Assembly (NCBI RefSeq): GCF_004010195.1 | Contig: NC_057751.1 | Span: 6,998,133 to 7,062,132 of the forward strand | Reading direction: 5' to 3' | DNA from: Chiloscyllium plagiosum | Taxonomy: Eukaryota | Length of the DNA: 64,000 bases | Shown: positions 6,778 to 59,410 of the stretch, piece after piece | How the letters are laid out: the number at the start of each line of letters is the position of its first letter | Numbering within the stretch: position 1 is the stretch's first letter | Position numbers and translations under genes: made by a program | Notes under the pieces: model-generated | Told to the model about the DNA's origin: nothing | What the model saw: the letters and a program-made list of their open reading frames with translations, nothing else | Database searches by the model: none

Positions 6778-8175
6778 TGTATGTTTGCTCGCAGAACTGG
6801 AAGGTTCGTTTTCAGACGTTTCATCACCGTACTAGGTAACATCTTCAGTGAGCCTCCGGATGAAGCACTGGTGGTGTAGCCCGCTTTCTATTTTTATGTT
6901 TGTGTTTCATTGGGATGGTGATGTCATTTCCTGTGGTGATGCCGTTTCCTGTGATAATGTCATTTTCTGTTCTTTTTCTCAGGAGGCGGTAAATGGGATC
7001 CAAGTCAATGTGTTTGTAGATAGAGTTCCAGTTGGAATGCCATACTTCTAGGAATTCTTGTGCATGCCTTTGTTTGGCTTGTCCTAGGATGGATGTGTTG
7101 TCCCAGTTGAAGTGGTGTCCTTACTCATCCGCATGTAAAGATACGAGTGAGAGTGGGTCATGTCTTTTTGTGGCTAGTTGATGTTCAAGTATTCTGGTGG
7201 CTAGTTTTCTGTCTGTTTGTCCAATGTAGCATTTGTTACAGTTCTTGCATGATATTTTGTAAATGACATTACTTTTGCTTGTTGTCTGTATCGGGTCTTT
7301 CAAGTTTATTAGCTGCTGTTTTAGTTCTGTTGGTGGGTTTATGGCTTTCATGAAGCCAAGCGGTCTGAGTAGTCTGGCAGTCATTTCCAAGATGTCTTTG
7401 ATGTAGGCTAGAATTTCTGAATGCATTTATCTGCTTGTTTGTTGCTGAGAAATTGGCGGGCTGTGTTCATTGGGTACCCATTCTTTCTGAATACATTGTA
7501 TAGGTGACTTTCCTCTACTCTGCGTAGTTCCTCCATGCTGCAGTGTGTGTTGGCTCATTGTAATAATGTTCTGATGCAGCTTCGTTTGTGGATGTTAGGA
7601 CGATTGCTTCTGTAGCTCAATATTTGGTCCGTCTGTCTTGTTTTCCTGTAGATGCTGATTTGAAGTTCCCCATTGGCTGTTCACTCTACTGCGACATCTA
7701 GGAATGGCAATTTGTTGTTTTCCTCCTCTTTAATGAATTTTATGCCAGTAAGGGTATTATTGATAGTCTTGAAGGTTTCCTCTAATGTATTTCGTTTAGT
7801 GATGACAAAAGTGTCATCCACGTAGCAGACCCCAAGTTTGGGTTGGATGTTGCCACAGTTGTTTGTTCGAGTCTCTGCATTACTGCCTCTGCTAAGAACC
7901 CTGATATCGGAGGTCTATGGGTATTCTGTTGGTTTGTCTGTAGATTTTGTTGTTGAAGGTGAAGTGGGTGATAAGGCATAGGTCCACTAGCTTGACGATA
8001 CTGTCCTTGATGATGAAATTGGTGGTGTTTTCTAATAACGTAGTCATGATTCCTTGGCCAGGTTGATGTTGTCATGCATAGGTCCACTAGCTTGACGATA
8101 CTGTCCTTGATGATATGTGTCTTTGGTTCTTCTAATAACGTAGTCATGATTCCTTGGCCAGGTTGATGTTGTCAT
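6778..8175 (-). mobile_element. Penelope-like retroelement (family A), 5'-truncated: partial RT, GIY-YIG endonuclease and pseudo-LTR
   Basis: Minus-strand ISGFLAEAVMQRLE and YVDDTF (RT); SNVIYKISCKNCNKCYIGQTDRKLATRILEH (GIY-YIG). Contains frameshifts. Confidence 0.92.
6812..6851 (-). ncRNA. Minimal type-I hammerhead ribozyme motif in the PLE pseudo-LTR
   Basis: Minus strand TCA-CTGAAGA-T-GTTACC-TAGTAC-GGTGAT-GAAA-CG-TC/TGA: intact CUGANGA and GAAA core, 6-bp stem II, palindromic ACGT stem III, GUC cleavage triplet and stem I TCA:TGA. Confidence 0.75.
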
Positions 8176-8956: not shown

Positions 8957-11170
8957 TACATAAGAACATAAAAACTACGAGCTGAAGTAGGCCACCTGGC
9001 TCTTTGAGCCTGCTCCACCATTCAATACGATCATGGCTGATCTTTCTGTGGCCTCAGCTCCACTTACCCACCCTCTCACCATATCCCTTAATTCTTTTAC
9101 AGCTCAAAAAATTATCTTAGCTTTAAAAACATTTACTGAGGAAGCCTCAACCACTTCACTGACAGGAAACTCCAGAGATTCATAACCCTCTGGATGGAGA
9201 AGTTCCTTCTCAATTCAGTTCGAAATCTGCTCCCCCTAATTTTGAGGCTAAGCCCTCTTGTCCTAGTTTCACTTGCCAGTGGGCACATCCTCTCTACTTC
9301 TATCTTATCTATTCCCTTCATAATTTTATATGTTTCTCATATGTTCTTCTAAATTTCACTGAATGTAATCCCCAGTTTACTCAATCTCTCCTCATAAGCC
9401 AACCCACTCAACTCTGGAATCAACCTCGTGCACCTTCTCTGCACTCCCTCTAATGCCACTACATCTTTTCTCAAGTCAGGAGACCAAAACTGAACGCAGA
9501 ACTCCAGATGTGGCCTCACCAACACCCGATACAGCTGCAACATAGTGTCTCTGCTTTTGAACTCAATCCCTTTAGCAACGAAGGACAAAATTCCATTTGC
9601 CTTTTTAATTACCTGTTGCACCTGCAGACCAACCTTCTGTGATTCATGCACAAGGACACTCAGTTCCCTCTGCACAGCAGTGTGCTGTAACTTTTTTACC
9701 ATTCAAGTAATAGTCCTTTTTACTGCTGTTTCTATCAAAATGGATAACTTCACATTTATTCATATTGTACTCCATCTGCCAGACCTTTGCCCACTCACTT
9801 AAACTATCAATGTCCATTTGCAAAGTTCCACAGTCCTCTGCACACTTTGCTCTACCACTCATTTCAGTGTCATCTGCAAACTTTGATACACTACACGTGG
9901 TCCACAACTCCAAATTATCTATATAAACTGTGAATAGTTGTGGTTCCAACACTGATCCCTGAGGCCTCACGAGTCACTGATTGCCAACCAGAATACCACT
10001 TATTTATTCCCACTCCTTGCTTTCTGTTAGTTAACCAATCCTCTGTCCACACTGATACATTGTCCATAATGCTTTGCATCTTTACCTTATGCAGCAGTCT
10101 TCTGTATGGCACCTTGTCGAATGCCTTTTGGAAATCTAAATACACCATCTACTGGGTCACCGTTGTCCATCATGATCATAATGTCTTCATAGAATTCCAA
10201 AAGGTTAGTTCAGCATGACCTGCCCTTCCGAAACCCATGTGGCGTCTGCCCAACGGGGCAATTTCTATCTAGATGCCTTGCTATTCCTGATGAAGGGCTT
10301 GTGCCTGAAACGCCGATTCTCCTGCTCCTCGGATGCTGCCTGACCTGCTTTGCTTTTCCAGCACTACACTCTCGAGTCTGATCTCCAGCATCTGCAAGTC
10401 CTCACTTTCTCACTTTGCTATTTCTTCCTTGATGATAACATTTTCCCCACCCCAGAAGTTAAGGTAACTGGTCTATAATTCCCCATGTTTTGTCTACCTC
10501 CCTTTTTAAACAGTGGTGTCACACATGCTGTTTTCCAATCTGCTGGAACTGCCCAGAGTCCAGCGAATTTTGGAAAATTACCATAATTTGCTATATCTCC
10601 CGCTATCTCTTTTAACACCATGGGATGCATTCCATCAGGTTCTGGATTAGTGGTGCTGGAAGAGCACGCCCTTCCGAAACCCATGTGGCGTCTGCCCAAC
10701 GGGGCAATTTCTATCTAGATGCCTTGCTATTCCTGATGAAGGGTTTGTGCCTGAAACGCCGATTCTCCTGCTCCTCAGATGCTGCCTGACCTGCTTTGCT
10801 TTTCCAGCACTACACTCTTGAGTCTGATCTCCAGCATCTGCAGTCCTCACTTTCTCACTTTGCTATTTCTTCCTTGATGATAATATTTTCCCCACCCCAG
10901 AAGTTAAGGTAACTGGTCTATAATTCCTCATGTTTTGTCTACCTCCCTTTTTAAACAGTGGTGTCACACTTGCTGTTTTCCAATCTGCTGGAACTGCCCA
11001 GAGTCCAGCGAATTTTGGAAGATTACCATAATTTGCTATTTCTCCCGCTATCTCTTTTAACACCATGAGATGCATTCCATCAGGGCCAGGACACTTGTCT
11101 ACCCTTAGCTTCATCATATTGCCCAATGCTACCTCTTTCGTGATATTGATTGTTTCTAAGTTCTCACCTA
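8957..11170 (-). mobile_element. CR1-clade LINE ORF2 3' half with internal duplication and mini-element insertions
   Basis: KCPGPDGMH, PLFKKGGRQNMGNYRPVTLTS, YLDFQKAFDKVP, PQGSVLEPQLF, KFADDT, LYRVLVRPHLEFCVQFWSP. The 3' tail (cataagaacata) is at about 8957-8970. Confidence 0.93.
10286..10414 (+). mobile_element. Hammerhead-bearing PLE-end mini-element (family B), TSD TTGCTATT; second copy at 10732-10859
   Basis: Begins cCTGATGAAGGGCTTGTGCCTGAAACGCCGATT, then gatgctgcctgacctgc...ccagcatctgca. Flanked by TTGCTATT at 10278-10285 and 10415-10422. Confidence 0.8.
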
Positions 11171-15689: not shown

Positions 15690-16310
15690 AGAAAAACAGA
15701 TATTGCTGGAGAAACGTTACAGGTCCAGCAGCATCTGTGGAGATTTAAGAGCTAATGTTTTGAGTACAGTGATCCTTGTTCAGAACTTATAGTTGCTGAG
15801 TAAAGCTGAAGCCAAAAGGTGTTATTGCGGGGAGAAAAGGAATGAAGGACAGTAAGGCAGAAACAATAGCGGGGCAGACAAAGGGACGGATGATAATACC
15901 ACCAGGGAGAAAGAAAAGCTGACAATGGGGACCACAGGTAGGTGCAAATGGATTGTCTGTGCTGAGAGCAGCCTCGTGTCATGTCAAGTGTGAGGACGGG
16001 GAAAGGACATGGAAGAAGGTGCTCCGGCCCTGAAATTATTGGACCAGATATTGAGTCCTGAAGGCTGCACGGTCCCCAGATGGAAAATGAGATGCTGTTT
16101 TTCCAGCTTGTGCTGAACCTCACTGGAACACTGCAGCGGCTCCAAAAGAGAAATGTTGGCCAAGGAACATGGTGGTGTGTCGAAGTGGCTGTCAACTGAA
16201 GCTCAAGATCATTTTTGCGGTATGTAGGTGTTCCGCAAAGTAGGTCACCCAGTCTGTCATTTGTCTCCCCAGTGTGGAGTAGGTCAGATTGTGGGCTATT
16301 TTGCATGGGG
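15690..16310 (-). mobile_element. Penelope-like element (family B) 3' fragment with GIY-YIG C-terminus
   Basis: HTGETNDRLG...FAEHL and QCSSEVQHKLEKQHLIFHLGTVQPSGLNI across frames. The 3' end carries a decayed hammerhead and cagatgctgctggacctg. Confidence 0.8.
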
Positions 16311-19747: not shown

Positions 19748-19826
19748 TGTGCTCGAAATGTTGAGTCTCCTCCTCCTTGGATGCTGCCTGACCAGCTGTG
19801 CTTTTCCAACACCACACCTTTTGACT
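19748..19826 (+). mobile_element. PLE-end mini-element (family B) inserted in a CR1 3' end, TSD CATTCAG
   Basis: Starts within hammerhead stem II (gtgctcGAAATGTTGA), then gatgctgcctgacc. CATTCAG at 19741-19747 and 19827-19833. Confidence 0.75.
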
Positions 19827-20127
19827 CATTCAGCCCATCGAGTCTGCTCTGCCATTCAATTATGGCTGATAAGTTTCTCTAAGACCAAAAGACGTCGAGG
19901 CAGGGGAGGATGAGACCCTGTAATGACTATAAGTTTGTCATTTAATTGACTATGCCCAAGGGCAGGAGGGATGCCCAAGACATTCACTGCCCCGCCCACC
20001 TTCTCTTCGCAGTCCCCACCCTCCCTGCACCTCCTGCCCCACAAAATGAAGTTGGCTACATTTTGCAAGCTTTTGTTTTTATTAATTCTTGGGATGTGGG
20101 TGTCGCTGGCTGGGCTAGTATTTATTA

Positions 20128-20298
20128 GAGACAAAAAAACTGCAGATGCTGGAATCCAAAATACAGTTGACAAATAGGAGGCTGCAACAGCACAGCAGGC
20201 AGTCCTGAAGAAGGGCTAAGACCAAAACGTTGACTTCTCCACCTCCTGATGCTGCCAGATTTGCTGTGCTCTTCCAACCTCCTGTTTGTCTACTTTGG
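20128..20298. mobile_element. Palindromic PLE-end mini-element with central hammerhead motif, inserted in an L2-like 3' end
   Basis: Inverted arms gacaaataggaggctg...cacagca and tgctgtgctcttccaacctcctgtttgtc. Centre AGTC-CTGAAGA-AGGGCTAAGACC-AAAACGTT-GACT (stem I AGTC:GACT). Degenerate TSD ag(t/c)atttatt. Confidence 0.7.
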
Positions 20299-25584: not shown

Positions 25585-26375
25585 GCATAAGACCAGAAGA
25601 TATAACTGCAAATGGAGGCCATTTGCCTCATCCAATTTGTTCTGCCATTTGATCTTGGCTGATAGCTTTCACAACCCCATTCGCCTGACTTCTGTCCATA
25701 ACCCTTGAAGCCCTTACTCATCAAGAACCTATCTGTCTCTGTCTTAATGACTTGGACTCCACTGCCTTCTGAGGCAATGTGTTCCAGAGCATCACCACCC
25801 TCTGGCTGAGGAAATTCCTCCTCATCTCAGTTCTAAAGGGTCTTCCCTTCACTCTGACGCTGTGTCCTGAGGTGTTGGCCTCTCCCACTTGTGAAAACAT
25901 CTTCTACACATCCACTTCAGGTCCTCTTAGTATTCTGTCAGTTTCACTGAGATCCCCCCTCATCCTTCTAAGCTCCATTGAGTACGGACCCAGAGTCCTT
26001 AACTGCTTGTCCTATGACAAGCCCTTCATTACCAGGATCATCCTTGTCAACCTCCTCTGGACCCCTTTCAAGGCTAGCACCTCCTTCCAGAACTGCTCAC
26101 AATATTCCAAGTCTGGCCTGACCAGAGTCTTATACAGAGTCTAGATGTGAGTGGTGTTGGAAAAGCACAACAGGTCAGGCAGCATGTGAGGGAAAATCGA
26201 CATTTCGGGCAAAAACCCTTCATCAGGAATGTCGATTTTCCTGCTCCTTGGATGCTGCCTGACCTGCTGTGCTTTTCCAGCACCACTGTAATCTAGACTC
26301 TGATCTCCAGCATCAGCAGTCCTCACTTTCGCCAGAGTCTTATACAGCCTCAGCAGTACATCTCCGCTCTTGTAA
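25585..26375 (-). mobile_element. CR1-clade LINE 3' part, interrupted by a mini-element
   Basis: YKSGDVLLRLYKTL|VRPDLEYCEQFW and a CR1 3' UTR ending cataagaccagaag. Confidence 0.88.
26138..26331. mobile_element. Palindromic hammerhead-bearing mini-element (family B), 16-bp TSD
   Basis: CCAGAGTCTTATACAG at 26122-26137 and 26332-26347. Inverted arms. Minus-strand ATTC-CTGATGA-A-GGGT-TTTT-GCCC-GAAA-TG-TC/GATT at about 26195-26230. Confidence 0.88.
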
Positions 26376-26769: not shown

Positions 26770-27700
26770 AGCAAATTACTGCAGATGATGGAATTTGTAT
26801 TGAAAACAGCATAGGCTGGAGATCACAGCAGACAAGCGGGAGGCTAGAAGAATGCAACAAGCCAGGCAGCATCCATGTAGAAAGAGCAAGCTAACATATC
26901 GAGTCTCGATGACTCTTCATCAGAGCTGAAATGAAGTTTGGAGGGGGTGGCTTTTATGCAATAGTGTGGGAGAGTTGAGTGGTGTGCAGGTAGTGGGTGC
27001 AGAGTGCTAGCGGAGAAGAGATATTAATAGTTCAGATTTAGTGATTGGAATGTGAGAATGGCAGAGCAATGGTGTGTCTAACCGCCAGACTTGAAAGAGA
27101 AGACAGTCCCACTGGGGTGGGGGGAGGGGAGAGAGGACATGGTGACAGGGAATGTAATAAGTAAAGCTAAAAGAAAGAAATGGGAGTTGGTTCACAATCT
27201 GAAGGTGTTGAATCCAATATTAAGTCACAGAGTCGTAGAGCGATACAGCAGGTAACAGACCCTTCGGTCCAACCCGTCCATGCCGACCAGATATCCTAAG
27301 TTAATATAGTCCCATTTGCTAGCACTTGGCCCATATTGCTCTCTAAACTGTTGCTATTCATGTACCCATCCAGATGCCTTTTAAATGTTGGAATTGAACC
27401 AGCCTTCACCACTCCCCCCGGCAGTTCATTCCATACACTCACGATCCTATGCTTGAAAACGTTGCCCCTGAGGTCCCTTTTAAATCTTTCCCTTCTCACC
27501 CTAAACCTCTGCCCTCTAGTTCTGGACTCCCCCATCCCAGGGACAAGACCTGTCTATTTACCCAGTCCATGCCCCTCATGATTCCAGAAGGCCATAAGCT
27601 GCCTAGTCTGAAGATGAGATGTTGCCCCTTGCGTTTATGCTGTGATTCACTGGAGCACTGCAGCGTGCTGATGACAGACACATGGGCATGCAAGCAGAGT
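26770..27700 (-). mobile_element. Penelope-like element (family B) 3' fragment, split by a CR1 3' end (27226-27583, minus)
   Basis: QCSSESQHKRKGQHLIFRLGSLWPSG|LNIGFNTFRL rejoins across the CR1. Minus-strand hammerhead GCT-CTGATGA-A-GAGTC-ATCGA-GACTC-GATATGTT-AGC at about 26889-26926. Confidence 0.82.
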
Positions 27701-36979: not shown

Positions 36980-37192
36980 AAACTGAAAGAACTGCGGATG
37001 CTGTGAATCAGAAATAAAAGCAGAAATTGCTGGAAAAACTCAGCTGGTCTGACAGCATTCGTGAAGACAATTCAGAGTTAACGTTTCGGGTCTGGTTCTG
37101 GGGAAGGGCTACCAGAACCGAAACATTAACTGATTTCTCTTCACAGATGCTGCTAGACCTGCTGAGCTTTTCCAACAATTTCTGTTTTTCTA
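36980..37192. mobile_element. Palindromic PLE-end mini-element (older subfamily) with central decayed hammerhead
   Basis: Inverted arms cagaaattgctggaaaaactcagctggtct and agacctgctgagcttttccaacaatttctg. Centre gttaacgtttcgg...gttCTGGGAAGGG...CCGAAACATTAAC. Confidence 0.75.
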
Positions 37193-40957: not shown

Positions 40958-42065
40958 GAGTCATAGGGTCATAGAGTCCTACAGCACACGCCAGTCCATT
41001 TGGTCCATGCTGACCAAAATGTCCGTCCACGCTAACCCCATTTCCCTGTATCTGGCCCATATCCTTCTAAACCTTTCCTATCCATGTATTTGTCCAAATT
41101 AATCTTAAATGTTGTTATTGTACCATTATGGCTGGCAACTCATTCCATATGTGTACCACCCTCTGTGTAAAAAAGTTACCCCTCAGGTTCCATTTTATTC
41201 TTTCCCCTCTGACCTGAAATGGATGCCCTCTGGTCCTCGATTTCCTCACCCTGGGAAAAGAAGACTGAGTACATTCACCCTATCCTTGCCGCTCATGATT
41301 TTATACACTTTTATATCTCCTGTGCTCTAAAGAAAAAGTCCGAGCTTGTCCAACCTCTCCCTATAACCCAGCCACGTGAGTCCTGGCAACATGCTTGTAA
41401 ATTTCTTCTGCACGCTTTCCAGTTTAATAACATCCTCCCTCAAGCAAGGTGACCAAGGTGACCACCATATTATAAGAAAGATGTGGATGCTTTGGAACAG
41501 GTTCAGAGGAGGTTTAAGAGGATGCTGCCTGGACTGGAGGGCTTATCTTATGAGGAGAGGTTGACTGAGCTCGGACTTTTTTCATTGGAGAAAAGGAGGA
41601 GAAGAGGGGACCTAATTGAGGTAAACAAGGTAATGAGAGGCATAGATAGAGTCGATAGCCAGAGACTATTTCCCAGGGCAAAAATGACTAACACGAGGGG
41701 TCATAGTTTTAAGCTGGTTGGAGGAAAGTATAGAGGGGATGTTAGAAGCGGGTTCTTTACACAGAGAATTGTGAGTGCATGGAATGCGTTGCCAGCAGCA
41801 GTTGTGGAGGCAGGGTCATTGGGGACATTTAAGAGACTCCTCGACATACATATGGTCACAGAAATTTGAGGGTGCATACATGAGAATCAGTGGTCGGCAC
41901 AACATCGTGGATTGAAGGGCCTGTTCTGTGCTGTACTGTTCTATGTTCTATGTTCTCTATGTTCTATGTTCTAAAACTGAACACAATATTACCAAGTGCA
42001 GCCTTGCCAACATCCTGTACAACTGCAATGTAACTTCCCAGCTTTTATACTCAATGCCCTGATGA
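40958..42065 (-). mobile_element. CR1 3' part (minus) with a nested younger CR1 3' end on the plus strand (41456-41972)
   Basis: The host reads caaggtgacca|aaactgaacacaatatt across the insert. The insert encodes MDALEQVQRRFKRMLPGL...FKRLLDIHM and ends in a (tgttcta)n tail. Confidence 0.88.
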
Positions 42066-45378: not shown

Positions 45379-45637
45379 ATATTGCCAACTAAAAGCCCAT
45401 CTGTAAAGCTCTACTCTTGATTGTTTGTTTCATATCTTCACACACATTTCTCCCCCATTGTGGAATATGGGCAAGTGTTGGAAAGATAAGAAAGCTGGTT
45501 GTCAATTTGTTTGAATCATGAGATGGTGTTTTTTCCGTGACCTACGTATCCTGGAATGGAACTTGAGCAGGAAACTTGTACCGAGTGGCAGAATATTCCT
45601 TGCTGACTCACAGTAACTCCACTGAAGTAGTGTTATT

Positions 45638-45859
45638 CAGTCAAGATTAGAGTGGTGCTGGAAAAGCACAGCAGGTCAGGCAGCATCCGCGCAGCAGGAG
45701 AATTGACGTCTTGGACGCAAGCCCTTCATCAGGAAAGAGGAAGGGCTTTTGCCCGAAACGCTGATTTTCCTGCTCCTCGGATGCTGCCTGATCTGTGCTT
45801 TTCCAGCACCACTCTAATCTTGACTCTAATCTCCACCATCTGCAGTATCCACTTCTGCC
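45638..45859. mobile_element. Palindromic hammerhead-bearing mini-element (family B), 10-bp TSD
   Basis: TAGTGTTATT at 45628-45637 and 45860-45869. Arms agtcaagattagagtggtgctggaaaagcacag and ctgtgcttttccagcaccactctaatcttgact. Two back-to-back hammerhead remnants in the centre (cccttcatcagg / aagggcttttgcccgaaacg). Confidence 0.88.
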
Positions 45860-46039
45860 TAGTGTTATTTCAGTGAAGGAGATTTGGAATCCCAGAATGG
45901 GAAGTCAAGTATTTCCTTGTGTGGACCGAAGATAATGGGCATTTTGCACGTTAGGGAACCTTAAATAAAAACGTAGTTGATCATTTTTTTGGCCAGGAGC
46001 TTGTTGACAATCCAGTGCACAACTGACTGGGTCAACCAG

Positions 46040-47465: not shown

Positions 47466-50089
47466 TCTATATCATACCTTTTTAACCACTTCCTCCCATT
47501 CCTTCTGGATGGCTGTTGTTAAAATTAACCATGACAGGAGATTGGGTTCAATAAATAATTAGTTGTATCGCTCGAGCAAGAAGCATGTGAGAGACAGGAT
47601 GAGATGGCAAATATGGGTGTGGGTTAATCTATCAGACACAGATGCGCTTGTTAAGCCGAACGCCGTTTTATTGTTCCTAAAGGATTTGTGTTCCTACCAC
47701 AATAAATCTTGTGAAATCTGCTCCATCAGTTAACAGTCACATTGTTGTGGCTGAATTAGCTTTTATGCCATGGCATATGGTTCTTCATAAGTACAGAGAT
47801 GGTGAATGATTTGGTTTCTGCAGTTAACAAATAATCTGTAAAGCTATAATTGGAAAAGGAAGAAGTGACTTGCACTCTTAAAGACTGTATTTTAGAATGC
47901 TTCTTGCAGAAATCAGCATTGTGTACAATAGCAGAAGCTGTGTTTATTTACATCCACAATCTGTTGGCCATGCTGCTCCTCTCAAATTAAAAACAATATA
48001 GTGTTCATAACTTGAGGGGTCCACCCACTGATCGACCACACATTGACTCCCCATTGAACAAGATCTCAATATTAAAATTCTCACACATTTTCATATTCCT
48101 CCGTTACCTTGACTCTCCCCCTCCCTCCTCTCTTTGTAACCACATCCAGTTCTAACATTCAGAAACCTGCATTGCTCTTCTTGCTTCTCCATAACTTGAA
48201 TTGATAGATTGTTGGCAATTGTACCTTACTGTGAGGCCAGAAGCTTTACAAATTCCATCCCCAAGCCTCTCCACCTCACTACTTCTCTCTCCTTTTTGGC
48301 CAAGCTTTCTGCCACTTGTCCTGCTGGCCTTTTAAGAAGGAGACTGCTGTCCTGACCAGGTGTGCCGCACAAGTGACTCCAGACCCTCAGCAATACGATT
48401 GACTCTTAACTGCTATCTGCTATTAGGGATGGGTAATAAATGCTGGTCTGGTCAGTGATGTCCACATCCTGTGGATGAATACAAAAATAATAATGTGGCT
48501 CATGTCACATTTAATTTTGTTAATGCTTCTGTAAAGTATCTTTGGATCTTTCACCGTGTCAAAGGCATTATATGAATACACGTTATTTTTGGCCTGATAA
48601 ACTGTGAAAGTTCACACTTGCAACTGTGTCTACGGCACAGATTTTCATCTTCCAGCCCCAGAGACTCACGAAAGATGCCCGAATAGTTTGATTCAGTCTC
48701 CAGGACTCGAACGATCAATGTATTCTTATATAACTCATGTTTGTTCACTCACTTACATGTGCCTTGATGCAATTTGGGGAGCTGAAAATGCCATTCTGGA
48801 CGTTCAGGTAGGAAAGTACAGGTCACAGGTTTTGCTCAGAGTCCTCAGAATTCTGCCTGTATTTGTTCATAGTTCCTCTGTGAGCATATATGGAGATTAA
48901 AACAGCACTGATGTGTGGTCTGTTGCTGCCCTGTTAATTATACACTGCACCCTTAACTTTCAGTTGACACTGGGGCTCAAGGTCTGCTTATTTCCATTCA
49001 ATCTTATCAACCTCCATGATCCTCTTGGCACCTCACCAATCTGCTTGCAGGCGACTGAGAAATCACAGACTCGCATTCACCAGCGCACTGGCAACTGGCA
49101 TTGAAAGGCGACAGCAAAGATACTTTGTGAGCACAAGCAATCACTCACCTCATGGTTTGGCATCTCATGGGTGCTTACTTGTTCCTGTAACGTTAGCTCA
49201 CTTATCACCTTCCTGTCTGCTCACTCCCAATCCATGCCTTGCCTCGCCGATTAGCACAGTCACAAAGCTAGGAGCTTTGCTGTCCCCAACAAGATGTACA
49301 CCCTTTTGACTGAAGACTATTGACCAAAAGGCAATGTACCAAGTCAGTCTCACACTTGGTCCATGCACAAGCAGTTTGCCTGGCAAAAACAAGCAGGAAG
49401 TCATGGGTCAAAATCTGACGGAAGTTGTCCTCACTGAAGTCTGCAGAGGCAATCAGCAGTCTGGGGGTCCTACCACAGCAAGTCAACTGCAGCTTCCCAT
49501 TACCAGTCAAAAGGATTGGCCATCAGGGTAATTTCAATGAGGGAGCCTCTGCAGCTGGAGTCCAGGGAATGGGTGAAGCTCTACGTTACCAATCTACCAC
49601 ATCTGAGGAGACGTACCGGCATCAGATAGGGGTCTTGGAATTTCTCATCCAGGCCCTGTGGTGAGGTGAACCAAGCTCATTCCATTGGGTTCATCAACAG
49701 AAACTCAGGAGAACGAGGTTTGGTGTTGGGTTGAGGGTAGTGATGAACAAGAGGAGCCTCTGCTGTGGGAAGGTGAACTGAGGGACCAGGATTTGGAACT
49801 GCACCATGGGGATCAGAGGGGGGATGAGAATCATGGAGGGCGCAACTGTGTCTACCGTACAGCGCGGAGGTCAAGAGGTCTGTGCATTGGGAGTTCTGTC
49901 CACAATCAGGAACACTCTGGCTTCAAGGAAAGGGCAACATATGAAGATTTGTGACATGATCTTCCACTTCTCCAATATTTTCAGAATCCGTCCAAGACCA
50001 AGCAGAACAGCTTTGGAATGCTATTGCTTTTCCTTGTGCCCAGAGGCTTGCTGGTCATTTGACAGATATTCAATGAATGACAGATTTTA

Positions 50090-50220
50090 CTGATGAAGGA
50101 TTAAGCCTGAAACGTCAACCTTTTCGCTCCCCAGATGCTGCCTGACCTGCTGTCCTTTTTCCAGCACCACACTTTATTGACTCTGACTTCTCCAGCATCT
50201 ATAGACCTCACTGTCTCCTA
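50090..50220 (+). mobile_element. Hammerhead-bearing PLE-end mini-element (family B)
   Basis: Starts exactly at CTGATGAAGGATTAAGCCTGAAACGTC, then gatgctgcctgacctgctgt...ccagcatct...ctcactgtctcc. Confidence 0.8.
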
Positions 50221-52555: not shown

Positions 52556-52877
52556 CCAGTTTATGTCAAAAAAACATTTTCAATTTGAAGAAATCCAGCA
52601 AGGAAGGTTCACATCGATGCAGAAAAGATCAAAGCTTTTCAGTGATTCTCAATGTGCTTCAGAAGCCACACGTCAGTTTGAATTGCACTATGAGGAAAAT
52701 TCAGCAGCAAGATCTTACTGAGGTGATGAAGCTGTCAACCAGGTGGATGTTATATTTGCCAGGAGAGGAATATTCACCAGGGCTGTGGGCGATCTCCCTG
52801 CTTCCCTTTGTATAATGTCACTGTATCTTTCACATTCACGTAAATGATATTATCAATTTTCTGACAGAGACTACTCT

Positions 52878-53001
52878 CTGACGAAGGGCTTATGCCCGAA
52901 ACATCGATTCTCATGCTCCTCGGAGGCTGCCTGACCTGCTGTGCTTTTCCAGCACCATGCTTTCAACTCTGATCTCCTGCATTTGCTGTCCTCACTTTCT
53001 T
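52878..53001 (+). mobile_element. Hammerhead-bearing PLE-end mini-element (family B)
   Basis: CTGACGA-A-GGGC-TTAT-GCCC-GAAA-CA-TC/GATT with a perfect stem II. Flanks gactactctctg and gactaccctctg form a degenerate TSD. Confidence 0.82.
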
Positions 53002-57629: not shown

Positions 57630-58157
57630 TACAACATAGAACAGTACAGCGCAGTTCAGGCCCTTCGGCTCTTGATGTTGTGCTGACCTTTTGTCCTACT
57701 CTGAGATCAAACTAACCATCATACCCTTCAAGTTAAAATCCAAGAATCACTTAAGTGTCACAAATGTATCTGACTCTACGACAACTGCTGGCAGTGCATT
57801 CCATGCACCCACCACTCTCTGTGCAGAGACCCTACCTCTGATATCTCCCCGAAACGTCCTCCAATCACGTTAAAATTATACCCTCCTGTGATAGCCATTT
57901 CTGCCCTGGGAAAAAGTCTCTGACTCTTTACTGTATCTATGCCTCTCATCATGTTGTACACCTCTATCAAGTCACCTGTCACCCTTCTTTGCTCCAATGA
58001 GAACAGCCCCAGCTTCCTCAACGTTTCTTCATAAGACATACCCTCCAGTCCAGGCAGCATCCTGGTAAGTCTCCTCTGCACCCTCTCTAAAGCTTCCACA
58101 TCTTTCCTCTAATGAGGCGACTAGAACTGAACACAATATTCCAAGTGTGGTCTAACC
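57630..58157 (-). mobile_element. CR1 3' end
   Basis: EALERVQRRLTRMLPGLEGMSYEETLRKLGLFSLE, with an acatagaaca tail. Confidence 0.9.
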
Positions 58158-59410
58158 GGTTGGAATACTATGGTTCTCAGAGTTCTCACGCGTGTCGTTG
58201 CTTGTCTTGTCCTCGGATGGATGTGTTGTCCCAGTCAAAGTGGTGTCCTTCCTCATCCATATGTAAGGATACTAGTGAGAGAGGGTCATGTCTTTTTGTG
58301 GCTAGTTGATGTTCATGTATCCTGGTGGCTAGTTTTCTGCCTGTTTGTCCAATGTCGTGTTTGTTACTTGCACGGTATTTTGTAAATGACATTAGTTTTG
58401 CTCGTTGTCTGTCTAGGGCTTTTCAAGTTCATTAGCTGTTGTTTTAGTGTGTTGGTGGGTTTTGTGGGCTACCATGATGCCAAGGGGTCTGAATAGTCTG
58501 GCAGTCATTTCCGAGATGTCTTTGATGTAAGGGAGAGTGGCTAGGATTTCTGGTCGTGTTTTGTCTACTTGTTTGGGTTTGTTGCTCAGAAATCGGCGGA
58601 CTGTGTTCATTGGGTACCCGTTCTTTTTGAATACACGGTATCGGTGATTTTCCTCTGTTCTACGTAGTTGGGTGTTGGGATGGTTGCTTCTGTACAGACC
58701 CACCCACAAACGAAGCTGCATCAAACATTATATCAACGAGCCAACACACAATGCAGTACAGAGGAATTACGTCAAAGACATCTTGGAAATGACTGCCAGA
58801 GTACTCAGACCCCTTGGTATCATGGTAGCCCACAAACCCACCAACACACTAAAACAGCAGCTAATGAACTTGAAAGGCCCTAGACAGACAACGAGCAAAA
58901 CTAATGTCATTTACAAAATACTGTGCAAGGACTATAACAAACACTACATTGGACAAACATGCACAAAACTAGCCACCAGGATACATGAACACCAATTAGC
59001 CACAAAAAGACATGACCCTCTCTCACTGGTATCTTCACATACGGATGAGGAAGGACACCACTTTGACTGGGACAACACATCCATCCTAGGACAAGCCAAA
59101 CAAAGACACACATGAGAATTCCTCGAAGCATAACATGCCAACCTGAATTCTATCAACAAACACACTGAGTTAGACCCCATCTACCACCCCCTGAGAAAAG
59201 GAACAGGAAGTGACTTCACCACAGGAAATGACATCACCAACCCAAACATATAAATAGAAAGCAGGAATTTTCAGCATTGCTTCACCTGAGGCCTACTGAA
59301 AATGTTACCTAGTAGGGTAACGAAAATCTGGAAATGAACCTTCCAGCTCAGCGAGCAAACCTACATCCAAAACCTCAACCTGAGCTACAAATCTTTTCAA
59401 AACTCGCTGA
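58158..59410. mobile_element. Penelope family A element with inverted structure (minus arm about 58158-58693, plus arm about 58695-59410 ending in a pseudo-LTR)
   Basis: Both arms encode the GIY-YIG region (TNVIYKILCKDYNKHYIGQT..KLATRIHEHQLATKRHDPLSL). The plus arm ends in a pLTR with decayed hammerhead CTGAAAATGTTACCTAGTAGGGTAACGAAAATC at about 59296-59328. Confidence 0.9.

Follow-up and report, generated by a model that had tools for sequence, protein, structure and literature searches.

Miniature head-to-head insertions of a Penelope-like element in a shark genome are probably made by twin priming

The DNA analysed here is a stretch of 64,000 nt from the Chiloscyllium plagiosum assembly (GCF_004010195.1, contig NC_057751.1, positions 6,998,133 to 7,062,132 of the forward strand), referred to below as the window. 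At 26138-26331 it carries an insert of about 200 bp, insert A, which consists of two 3' ends of a Penelope-like element (PLE) of Neptune type, inverted and placed head-to-head between exact target-site duplications (TSDs). Each PLE end, read outward from the hammerhead, is called an arm, and element positions are numbered so that 0 is C3 of the hammerhead box CUGANGA and the predicted cleavage lies between +27 and +28 (Table 1). At the tailless end, the last three bases of the left TSD (CAG) also match the continuation of the element and are therefore microhomology. A whole hammerhead is present in just one arm of A, where it carries GAAAUGUC instead of GAAACGUC; its predicted cut would fall between 26199 and 26198. 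An earlier note on this DNA, made from the letters alone, had described inserts of this kind as two copies of one end joined back-to-back at a hammerhead. The inversion and the closeness to the motif stand, but the arms of A are unequal in extent and their join, at +25, is near the hammerhead and off its cleavage site (+27/+28). The insert folds as one long hairpin (-111.6 kcal/mol, z = -13.1; 0 of 200 shuffles equal it), and a fold of the minus strand pairs the hammerhead motif, cleavage triplet included, into that hairpin. Insert A is itself nested in an older LINE-like repeat (25820-26350) that has relatives at 41476-41553 and 57979-58157.

Table 1. Features of insert A and related copies in the window (positions from the first letter of the window).
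Feature	Position	Strand	Description
Left TSD of A	26122-26137	+	16 bp, exact, CCAGAGTCTTATACAG
Inverted tailless arm of A	26138-26230	-	PLE 3' end, -4 to about +92
Decayed minimal type-I hammerhead of A (predicted)	26195-26230	-	CUGAUGA-A-GGGU/UUUU/GCCC-GAAAUGUC
Direct arm of A	26231-26331	+	starts at +25 (GTCGA...), runs to +125, without hammerhead core
One-sided tail of A	26300-26331	+	32 nt
Right TSD of A	26332-26347	+	exact copy of CCAGAGTCTTATACAG
Insert B	45628-45869 with TSDs (insert 45638-45859)		palindromic, A's subfamily group
Insert C	20128-20298, bounds approximate		older head-to-head palindrome, another subfamily, TSD-like repeat 12/15
Insert D	36980-37192		older head-to-head palindrome, third subfamily, TSD-like repeat 9/10
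Solo arm with tail	10283-10410	+	starts at -4; duplicated with flanks at 10729-10855
Solo tailless arm	19748-19827	+	8-bp flanking repeat
Solo arm with tail	50087-50216	+	
Solo arm with tail	52871-53000	+	passes minimal-hammerhead descriptor
5'-truncated PLE	15690-16310	-	GIY-YIG C-terminal coding remnant, 3' UTR and decayed arm
PLE 3' remnant	26770-27700	-	arm 26799-26923; LINE-like repeat interrupts at about 27240-27575

Four palindromic inserts had been reported in the window, and in all four (A to D) inverted arms do lie head-to-head at the places given; the two clean TSDs, exact over 16 bp at A and 10 bp at B (TAGTGTTATT), were likewise found. B has its tail on the right arm and a junction that differs from A's. 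C and D belong to subfamilies more distant from A, and the TSD-like repeats there have decayed. All five of the single-arm copies listed earlier are present, but those at 10285 and 10731 are copies within a tandem duplication of 446 bp and so represent a single insertion. This duplication occupies 10222-11091, its copies being 96-98% identical. The same PLE end had also been assigned to two GIY-YIG coding remnants. That at 15690-16310 is borne out by tblastn, which matches the coding remnant at 16017-16196 to the C-terminus of the partner open reading frame (ORF) described below (E 4e-6). At 26770-27700 the assignment stands on matches of other copies at the DNA level and on a terminal motif visible by eye, but tblastn against the partner ORF gave no match. 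Another PLE family, unrelated to the first and with a GIY-YIG remnant of its own, is also present in the window (6805-7600 and 58158-59300) and is presumably to be labelled Poseidon-type. Its hammerhead, at 6848 (minus strand), is a separate variant with a T bulge and a longer stem II, and the family's copy at 58158-59143 forms a large inverted repeat in its own right.

The source of the arms can be followed in longer copies. In blind genome stretches these extend upstream, by way of several related 3' UTRs, to coding sequence in which a CX4CXXC linker is followed by a C-x-x-C...YIGETG...H endonuclease motif; the linker reads CNRRRCKTC in loci L254, L256, L258, L261 and L263, among others. The GIY-YIG label of this partner ORF is a reading of that motif, and a Pfam search with a 320-aa piece of the ORF returned no match. 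On the strength of the linker, the source PLE is provisionally taken to be of Neptune type. A search of the genome for a full-length master recovered truncated or gapped copies alone, none with a full reverse transcriptase (RT). In the published classification, a CX2-5CXXC zinc-finger-like linker between RT and endonuclease (EN) marks the Neptune and Nematis clades (PMC8557442). The source sequence goes on past the tail: a pattern lengthened by six letters beyond the tail matches 1,036 loci, two retrieved loci share a longer continuation, and a sister subfamily has a related one. The ends of the inserts are therefore internal to the template. With their inverted pseudo-LTR (pLTR), one-sided tail, TSD and EN ORF, the short inserts are insertions of an EN+ PLE, putatively of Neptune type; the layout of inverted pLTR, one-sided tail and TSD has been published before (PMC3846280, PMC8557442, PMC2377424).

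Abundance was estimated from a blind sample of 160 stretches of 10 kb, taken at round-number positions on 43 large contigs (1.555 Mb without N). The arm profile was built from eight window copies, and the counts cover the families that this profile detects. The search found 373 arms in the 1.555 Mb; in the first 100 stretches a shuffled control gave 0 arms against 222 in the real sequence. Pairs within 35 nt of each other were head-to-head in 84 cases, direct in 2 and tail-to-tail in 0, and where both arms scored at least 40 bits (n = 62) the pair had one tail in 57 cases, two in 4 and none in 1. The PLE origin and high abundance proposed in the earlier note are thus upheld by longer copies that reach the GIY-YIG ORF and by these close head-to-head pairs. 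Short palindromes have a density of about 54 per Mb, which extrapolates genome-wide to about 190,000 short palindromes and 830,000 arms in the profile-visible families; at 210 bp apiece, this would imply that about 1% of the genome is long hairpin-forming sequence. One complex insert (L054:60-290) has sequence from downstream of the tail inverted tail-to-tail and nested between two arms.

The minimal type-I hammerhead predicted in these arms is real as a class of motif. Its descriptor matches 82 times in the 1.555 Mb and not once in 5 shuffles. Stem I, on whose pairing the descriptor makes no demand, is paired in 88, 89 and 83% of matches at positions 1, 2 and 4 and in 35% at position 3. Pair 2 of stem II, where the descriptor does demand pairing, is G-C in 73, T-A in 7 and A-T in 2, the T-A cases belonging to another PLE family. 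An Rfam scan of the window reported no hammerhead family, only chance hairpin matches. The earlier description of the inserts as hammerhead-bearing holds for the motif class but not for most of the individual motifs: A has one whole, decayed motif, both cores of B are broken, those of C and D are also broken (by eye), and under the strict minimal-hammerhead descriptor the solo copy at 52878 is the sole member of A's family in the window to pass. Minimal hammerheads have been described in fish PLEs, where single motifs are inactive as monomers and where pairs of motifs on opposite strands, separated by 100-700 bp, were already noted (PMC4209133).

A real minimal hammerhead with a paired stem I is what one would expect of a retrozyme, whose RNA would self-cleave at two hammerheads, circularise and reinsert, and one locus (L274:386-1030) is retrozyme-like by the tandem criterion, being a head-to-tail array of about 205-bp units with two intact hammerheads on the same strand. 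In the palindromes, however, the motifs lie on opposite strands, and a single transcript therefore cannot supply two hammerheads on one strand, as the minimal type requires. Because the arms meet or overlap inside the motif, often only one hammerhead is whole, and minimal hammerheads were found inactive as monomers (PMC4209133). The insert ends correspond to RT start sites and not to cleavage sites, +28 is rarely the position of an inner end, and in A the motif is paired into the hairpin. A retrozyme origin of the short inserts is accordingly very improbable. The units at L274 run past the tail into the element body and then jump back to about -20 or -3.

If the short inserts were copied as finished units, their inner junctions should tell, and here the picture is one of diversity. 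The exact 26-mer that spans A's junction occurs at 11 loci, which differ in tail sequence and in the arm that bears the tail (8 and 3). Both arms are intact and no more than 28 nt apart at 5,525 loci of a young subfamily, the search pattern restricting which junctions can show up. Counted by eye, the 50 of these loci that were listed contain 27 junction kinds, the commonest in 7/50; eight kinds recur, in 7, 6, 5, 3, 3, 3, 2 and 2 loci. Seven of the eight show inverted microhomology of 2-3 nt and the eighth has 3 nt by eye; across the short inserts, junctions mostly have 1-3 nt of microhomology. Core lengths are just as varied, with 27 different values among the 43 anchorable of 48 strong blind pairs. 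The earlier note had held that random junction positions would point to independent truncations and away from a discrete family. What was found is intermediate: the junctions are not fixed, yet they pile up at -6 to +11. Microhomology density near -5 is high (12/320) without being exceptional, other bins reaching 10-14/320.

The pile-up raises the question of where the cDNAs end. An apparent pile-up of 5' ends in reference alignments and read depth was discarded as confounded, the subfamilies diverging upstream of -5; TSD-bounded solo arms were used instead. Among 110 solo arms examined, 9 of the 25 bounded by a TSD end at -6 to +5 (control 1/60). Hammerhead cleavage was also rejected as the cause of the junctions: inner ends at +28 are few, and the join of A is at +25. 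The cDNA may stop near -6 to +5 at an RNA 5' end or at a structural stall. The sequence TCATTCC at -6 may be initiator-like. In a poly(A) single-cell run (X21, about 2% read), 2,108 reads fell on both strands without a point at which many of them start or stop, a result that speaks neither for nor against a start site or a circular RNA. Several subfamilies have, by eye, a short inverted repeat at -11 to +8 that overlaps the first hammerhead box and carries wobble-compatible variants; it could stall the RT or switch the ribozyme off. In the same run, reads over L135:1440-1937 show T>C at 24 places compared with 8 in DNA contigs, and A>G at 22 compared with 15-17. Given that individuals differ and subfamilies are mixed, these mismatches are a weak hint of A-to-I editing of PLE hairpins.

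The two arms of an insert resemble each other more than they resemble other arms. In the blind pairs, with CpG columns excluded, own arms are 91.6% alike and arms of different inserts 85.4%, own-arm identity being the higher in 42/47. In the first 100 stretches (n = 26), 99 of 173 minority bases are common to the partner arm, compared with 28.8 expected; a column-by-column search of these 26 blind pairs for bias by arm role found none. The earlier proposal of a discrete retrozyme-like family is not supported by these results, since the junctions are many and variants are common to the arms of one insert and not to an arm role. The 29 inserts that best match A point the other way: their own arms agree at 91.3%, hardly more than the 90.4% between inserts, and by eye a G is confined to the tail arm in 9 of the 29, although the query biases this set. 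A sharper view comes from the first 30 of the 1,051 loci that have the commonest young junction. A diagnostic base is concordant between arms in 20/20 scorable inserts (15 with T, 5 with C), and at a second marker the arms are discordant in 1/20 scorable inserts (L167). Because the marker agrees within inserts and differs among them, the same junction must have arisen repeatedly from different sources.

The outer ends of these 30 young loci are equally informative. A TSD of at least 9 bp is present in 29/30 (median 15), compared with 6% of 870 mismatched control pairings. The tail end is tight, at +122 to +126 in 19/29, and the tailless end looser, at +86 to +93 in 24/29, with a mean of 1.9 nt of microhomology to the target compared with 0.38 in controls. 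Of the two arms, the one beginning at +9 carries the tail in 25 loci and the one beginning at -1 in 4; the remaining locus is cut short by N. One tail per pair, TSDs and concordant arms are what a stereotyped inversion product of PLE integration would leave, and it is this alternative, which the earlier note had also raised, that the data uphold.

Within that alternative, the short inserts are probably the shortest PLE integration products, likely made anew each time by twin priming and head-to-head joining of the cDNAs, a reading drawn from the geometry of the ends. The target would be cut at staggered sites about 15 bp apart; priming would begin at the tail end on one nicked strand and about 33 nt inward of it on the other, and both RT starts would lie inside an RNA that covers the pLTR-body junction. 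The two cDNAs would stop near -6 to +5 and then anneal to each other. The hammerhead would be a passenger, and the insert would not be mobilised by it. In support, a PLE protein from an anole nicks and extends both strands in vitro, with two internal RT starts that bound the tail and with no requirement for hammerhead cleavage (PMC11167929). Several points count against twin priming: gene conversion between arms could also make the arms alike, one insert (L167) has discordant arms at the second marker, and the anole enzyme belongs to the Poseidon clade and, in the available text of that study, shows no homology at its RT starts, while the tailless end here has microhomology.

Matching arms within one insert would also follow if a single cDNA, or an antisense template, snapped back near the hammerhead and copied itself into a second arm. 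The stretch from -11 to +11 is partly self-complementary, and self-priming on an antisense template has been put forward for rotifer PLEs (PMC3846280). The position of the tail is hard to reconcile with such fold-back. If priming at the tail were followed by fold-back, the tailed arm would always be the one that starts further upstream, so that fold-back accounts for just the 4 loci of that kind; the geometry is possible in 4/29 young copies and 3/11 copies with A's junction. In 25/29 young and 8/11 A-junction copies it is the arm starting further downstream that has the tail, an arrangement that a single sense-derived cDNA cannot template. A cDNA primed at about +90 has no tail to copy, so 25/29 require a second antisense template, and two cDNAs primed from two nicks would, we infer, be its simplest source. 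Many of the fold-back stems, moreover, would be only 2 bp long. Fold-back is thus an unlikely origin for the short inserts, and twin priming is the preferred one.

While the short inserts have many junctions, a separate and longer palindrome of about 600 nt has one. The notion of a single family with a fixed junction holds for this palindrome and not for the short inserts. A search with one of its arms found the same inverted junction in 24 of the best 40 matches, and the pattern for the palindrome (loci L131 and L184-L193 included) matches 180 loci, the junction being identical in 50/50 of those listed. The join, -215/-200, is blunt and without microhomology. One base is arm-specific (9/10 left arms, 8/10 right arms), the tail can be on either side, and the TSDs differ. 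Many copies adjoin assembly gaps (N), and this, together with the 0 changes in the 50 listed copies, led to an assembly artefact being suspected at first. A gap-filling artefact was not upheld: contigs that cross the junction have summed depths of 777-1625 in all four DNA runs, from two studies, many times the single-copy level (apparent single-copy pieces have a depth of about 7-25 in two runs), although summed depth is not copy number. The depth ratio suggests tens of real copies, roughly 70-110, and the count of 180 may be inflated. Three other loci (L133, L134 and L135) are 100% identical over 444 nt, and their direct arms share one starting base (about -350). Two of the three directly follow N gaps, and the set represents either a second fixed junction or a gap-filling artefact.

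The junction of the 600-nt palindrome is inherited from its template, by way of the palindrome alone or of a longer master. From a template that was already inverted, the two cDNAs would be complementary over the whole arm and the junction would be passed on. As this family is copied with its junction, being made anew is not universal. Its fixed blunt junction, arm-specific base, multi-copy depth, variable tail side and differing TSDs are the features expected if non-autonomous palindromes retrotranspose as units, MITE-like in shape but driven by RT, with a PLE end on each strand as the signal. The short inserts do not share them: their junctions are diverse, no arm-specific variant was found in them, A's junction 26-mer recurs at 11 loci only, with tail sequence and tail side varying, and they are without the past-tail sequence that the anole enzyme needs. 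The 600-nt copies, for their part, could derive from one longer master with the junction at its 5' end, and many adjoin assembly gaps. That the short inserts spread as units is hence distinctly unlikely, and twin priming is still favoured for them. A broader and rather doubtful idea would join the two classes: PLE integration may be intrinsically two-ended, and two-end palindromes may become self-sufficient RT-mobilised units in which the inner junction is inherited and the outer ends are cut again. If this were true, the roughly 190,000 short inserts would document the mechanism across the genome, and the 600-nt family would count as the first "retro-MITE".

For two decades PLEs have been known to carry an inverted repeat and a tail on one side, and in the available accounts the origin of these features is still described as unvalidated. 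Young minimal insertions, present in the thousands, allow twin priming to be told apart from fold-back by the statistics of their ends and junctions, and these statistics yield predictions for the existing in vitro PLE system; what is explained least well is the inherited junction of the 600-nt family. The literature searched, with subscription journals, Dfam and Repbase lying outside it, contained no description of this insert family or of PLE twin priming. Twin priming itself is familiar from L1, where a second target nick primes a second cDNA and leaves an inverted segment with microhomology at the join. The inverted piece in L1 is an upstream part of the RNA, whereas both arms here are the same terminal segment.

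Among PLEs, head-to-head 3' ends like these are found in Pen2a_Av of Adineta vaga (PMC3846280), in the scheme of PMC8557442 and in Penelope of D. virilis (PMC2377424). These EN+ elements share with the inserts a one-sided tail of 30-40 nt, a TSD, 5' truncation and a GIY-YIG partner ORF; the inserts differ in being reduced to two ends of about 200 bp in total, with junction and concordance data available in the thousands. The hammerheads of PMC4209133 have the same plan (CUGANGA-A-stem II-GAAACGUC, no helix III, weak stem I), while the arms here abut or overlap inside the predicted motif. The Poseidon element of Anolis carolinensis (PAc, PMC11167929) is alike in that both strands are cut and extended, RT starts at two internal sites and the template spans the pLTR-body junction. 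PAc belongs to another clade, the available text of that paper makes no mention of cDNA joining, and it is reported to have no homology at its RT start sites, compared with a mean of 1.9 nt of microhomology at the tailless end here. Non-LTR retrozymes (PMC7229834; bioRxiv 10.64898/2026.07.22.740005) are, like the inserts, non-coding, hammerhead-bearing and PLE-related. They are defined by tandem units on the same strand with a hammerhead in consecutive units, whereas the inserts are inverted pairs (2 close direct pairs compared with 84 inverted) and are not in tandem. The short inserts are a very abundant miniature variant of the known PLE layout and not a retrozyme.
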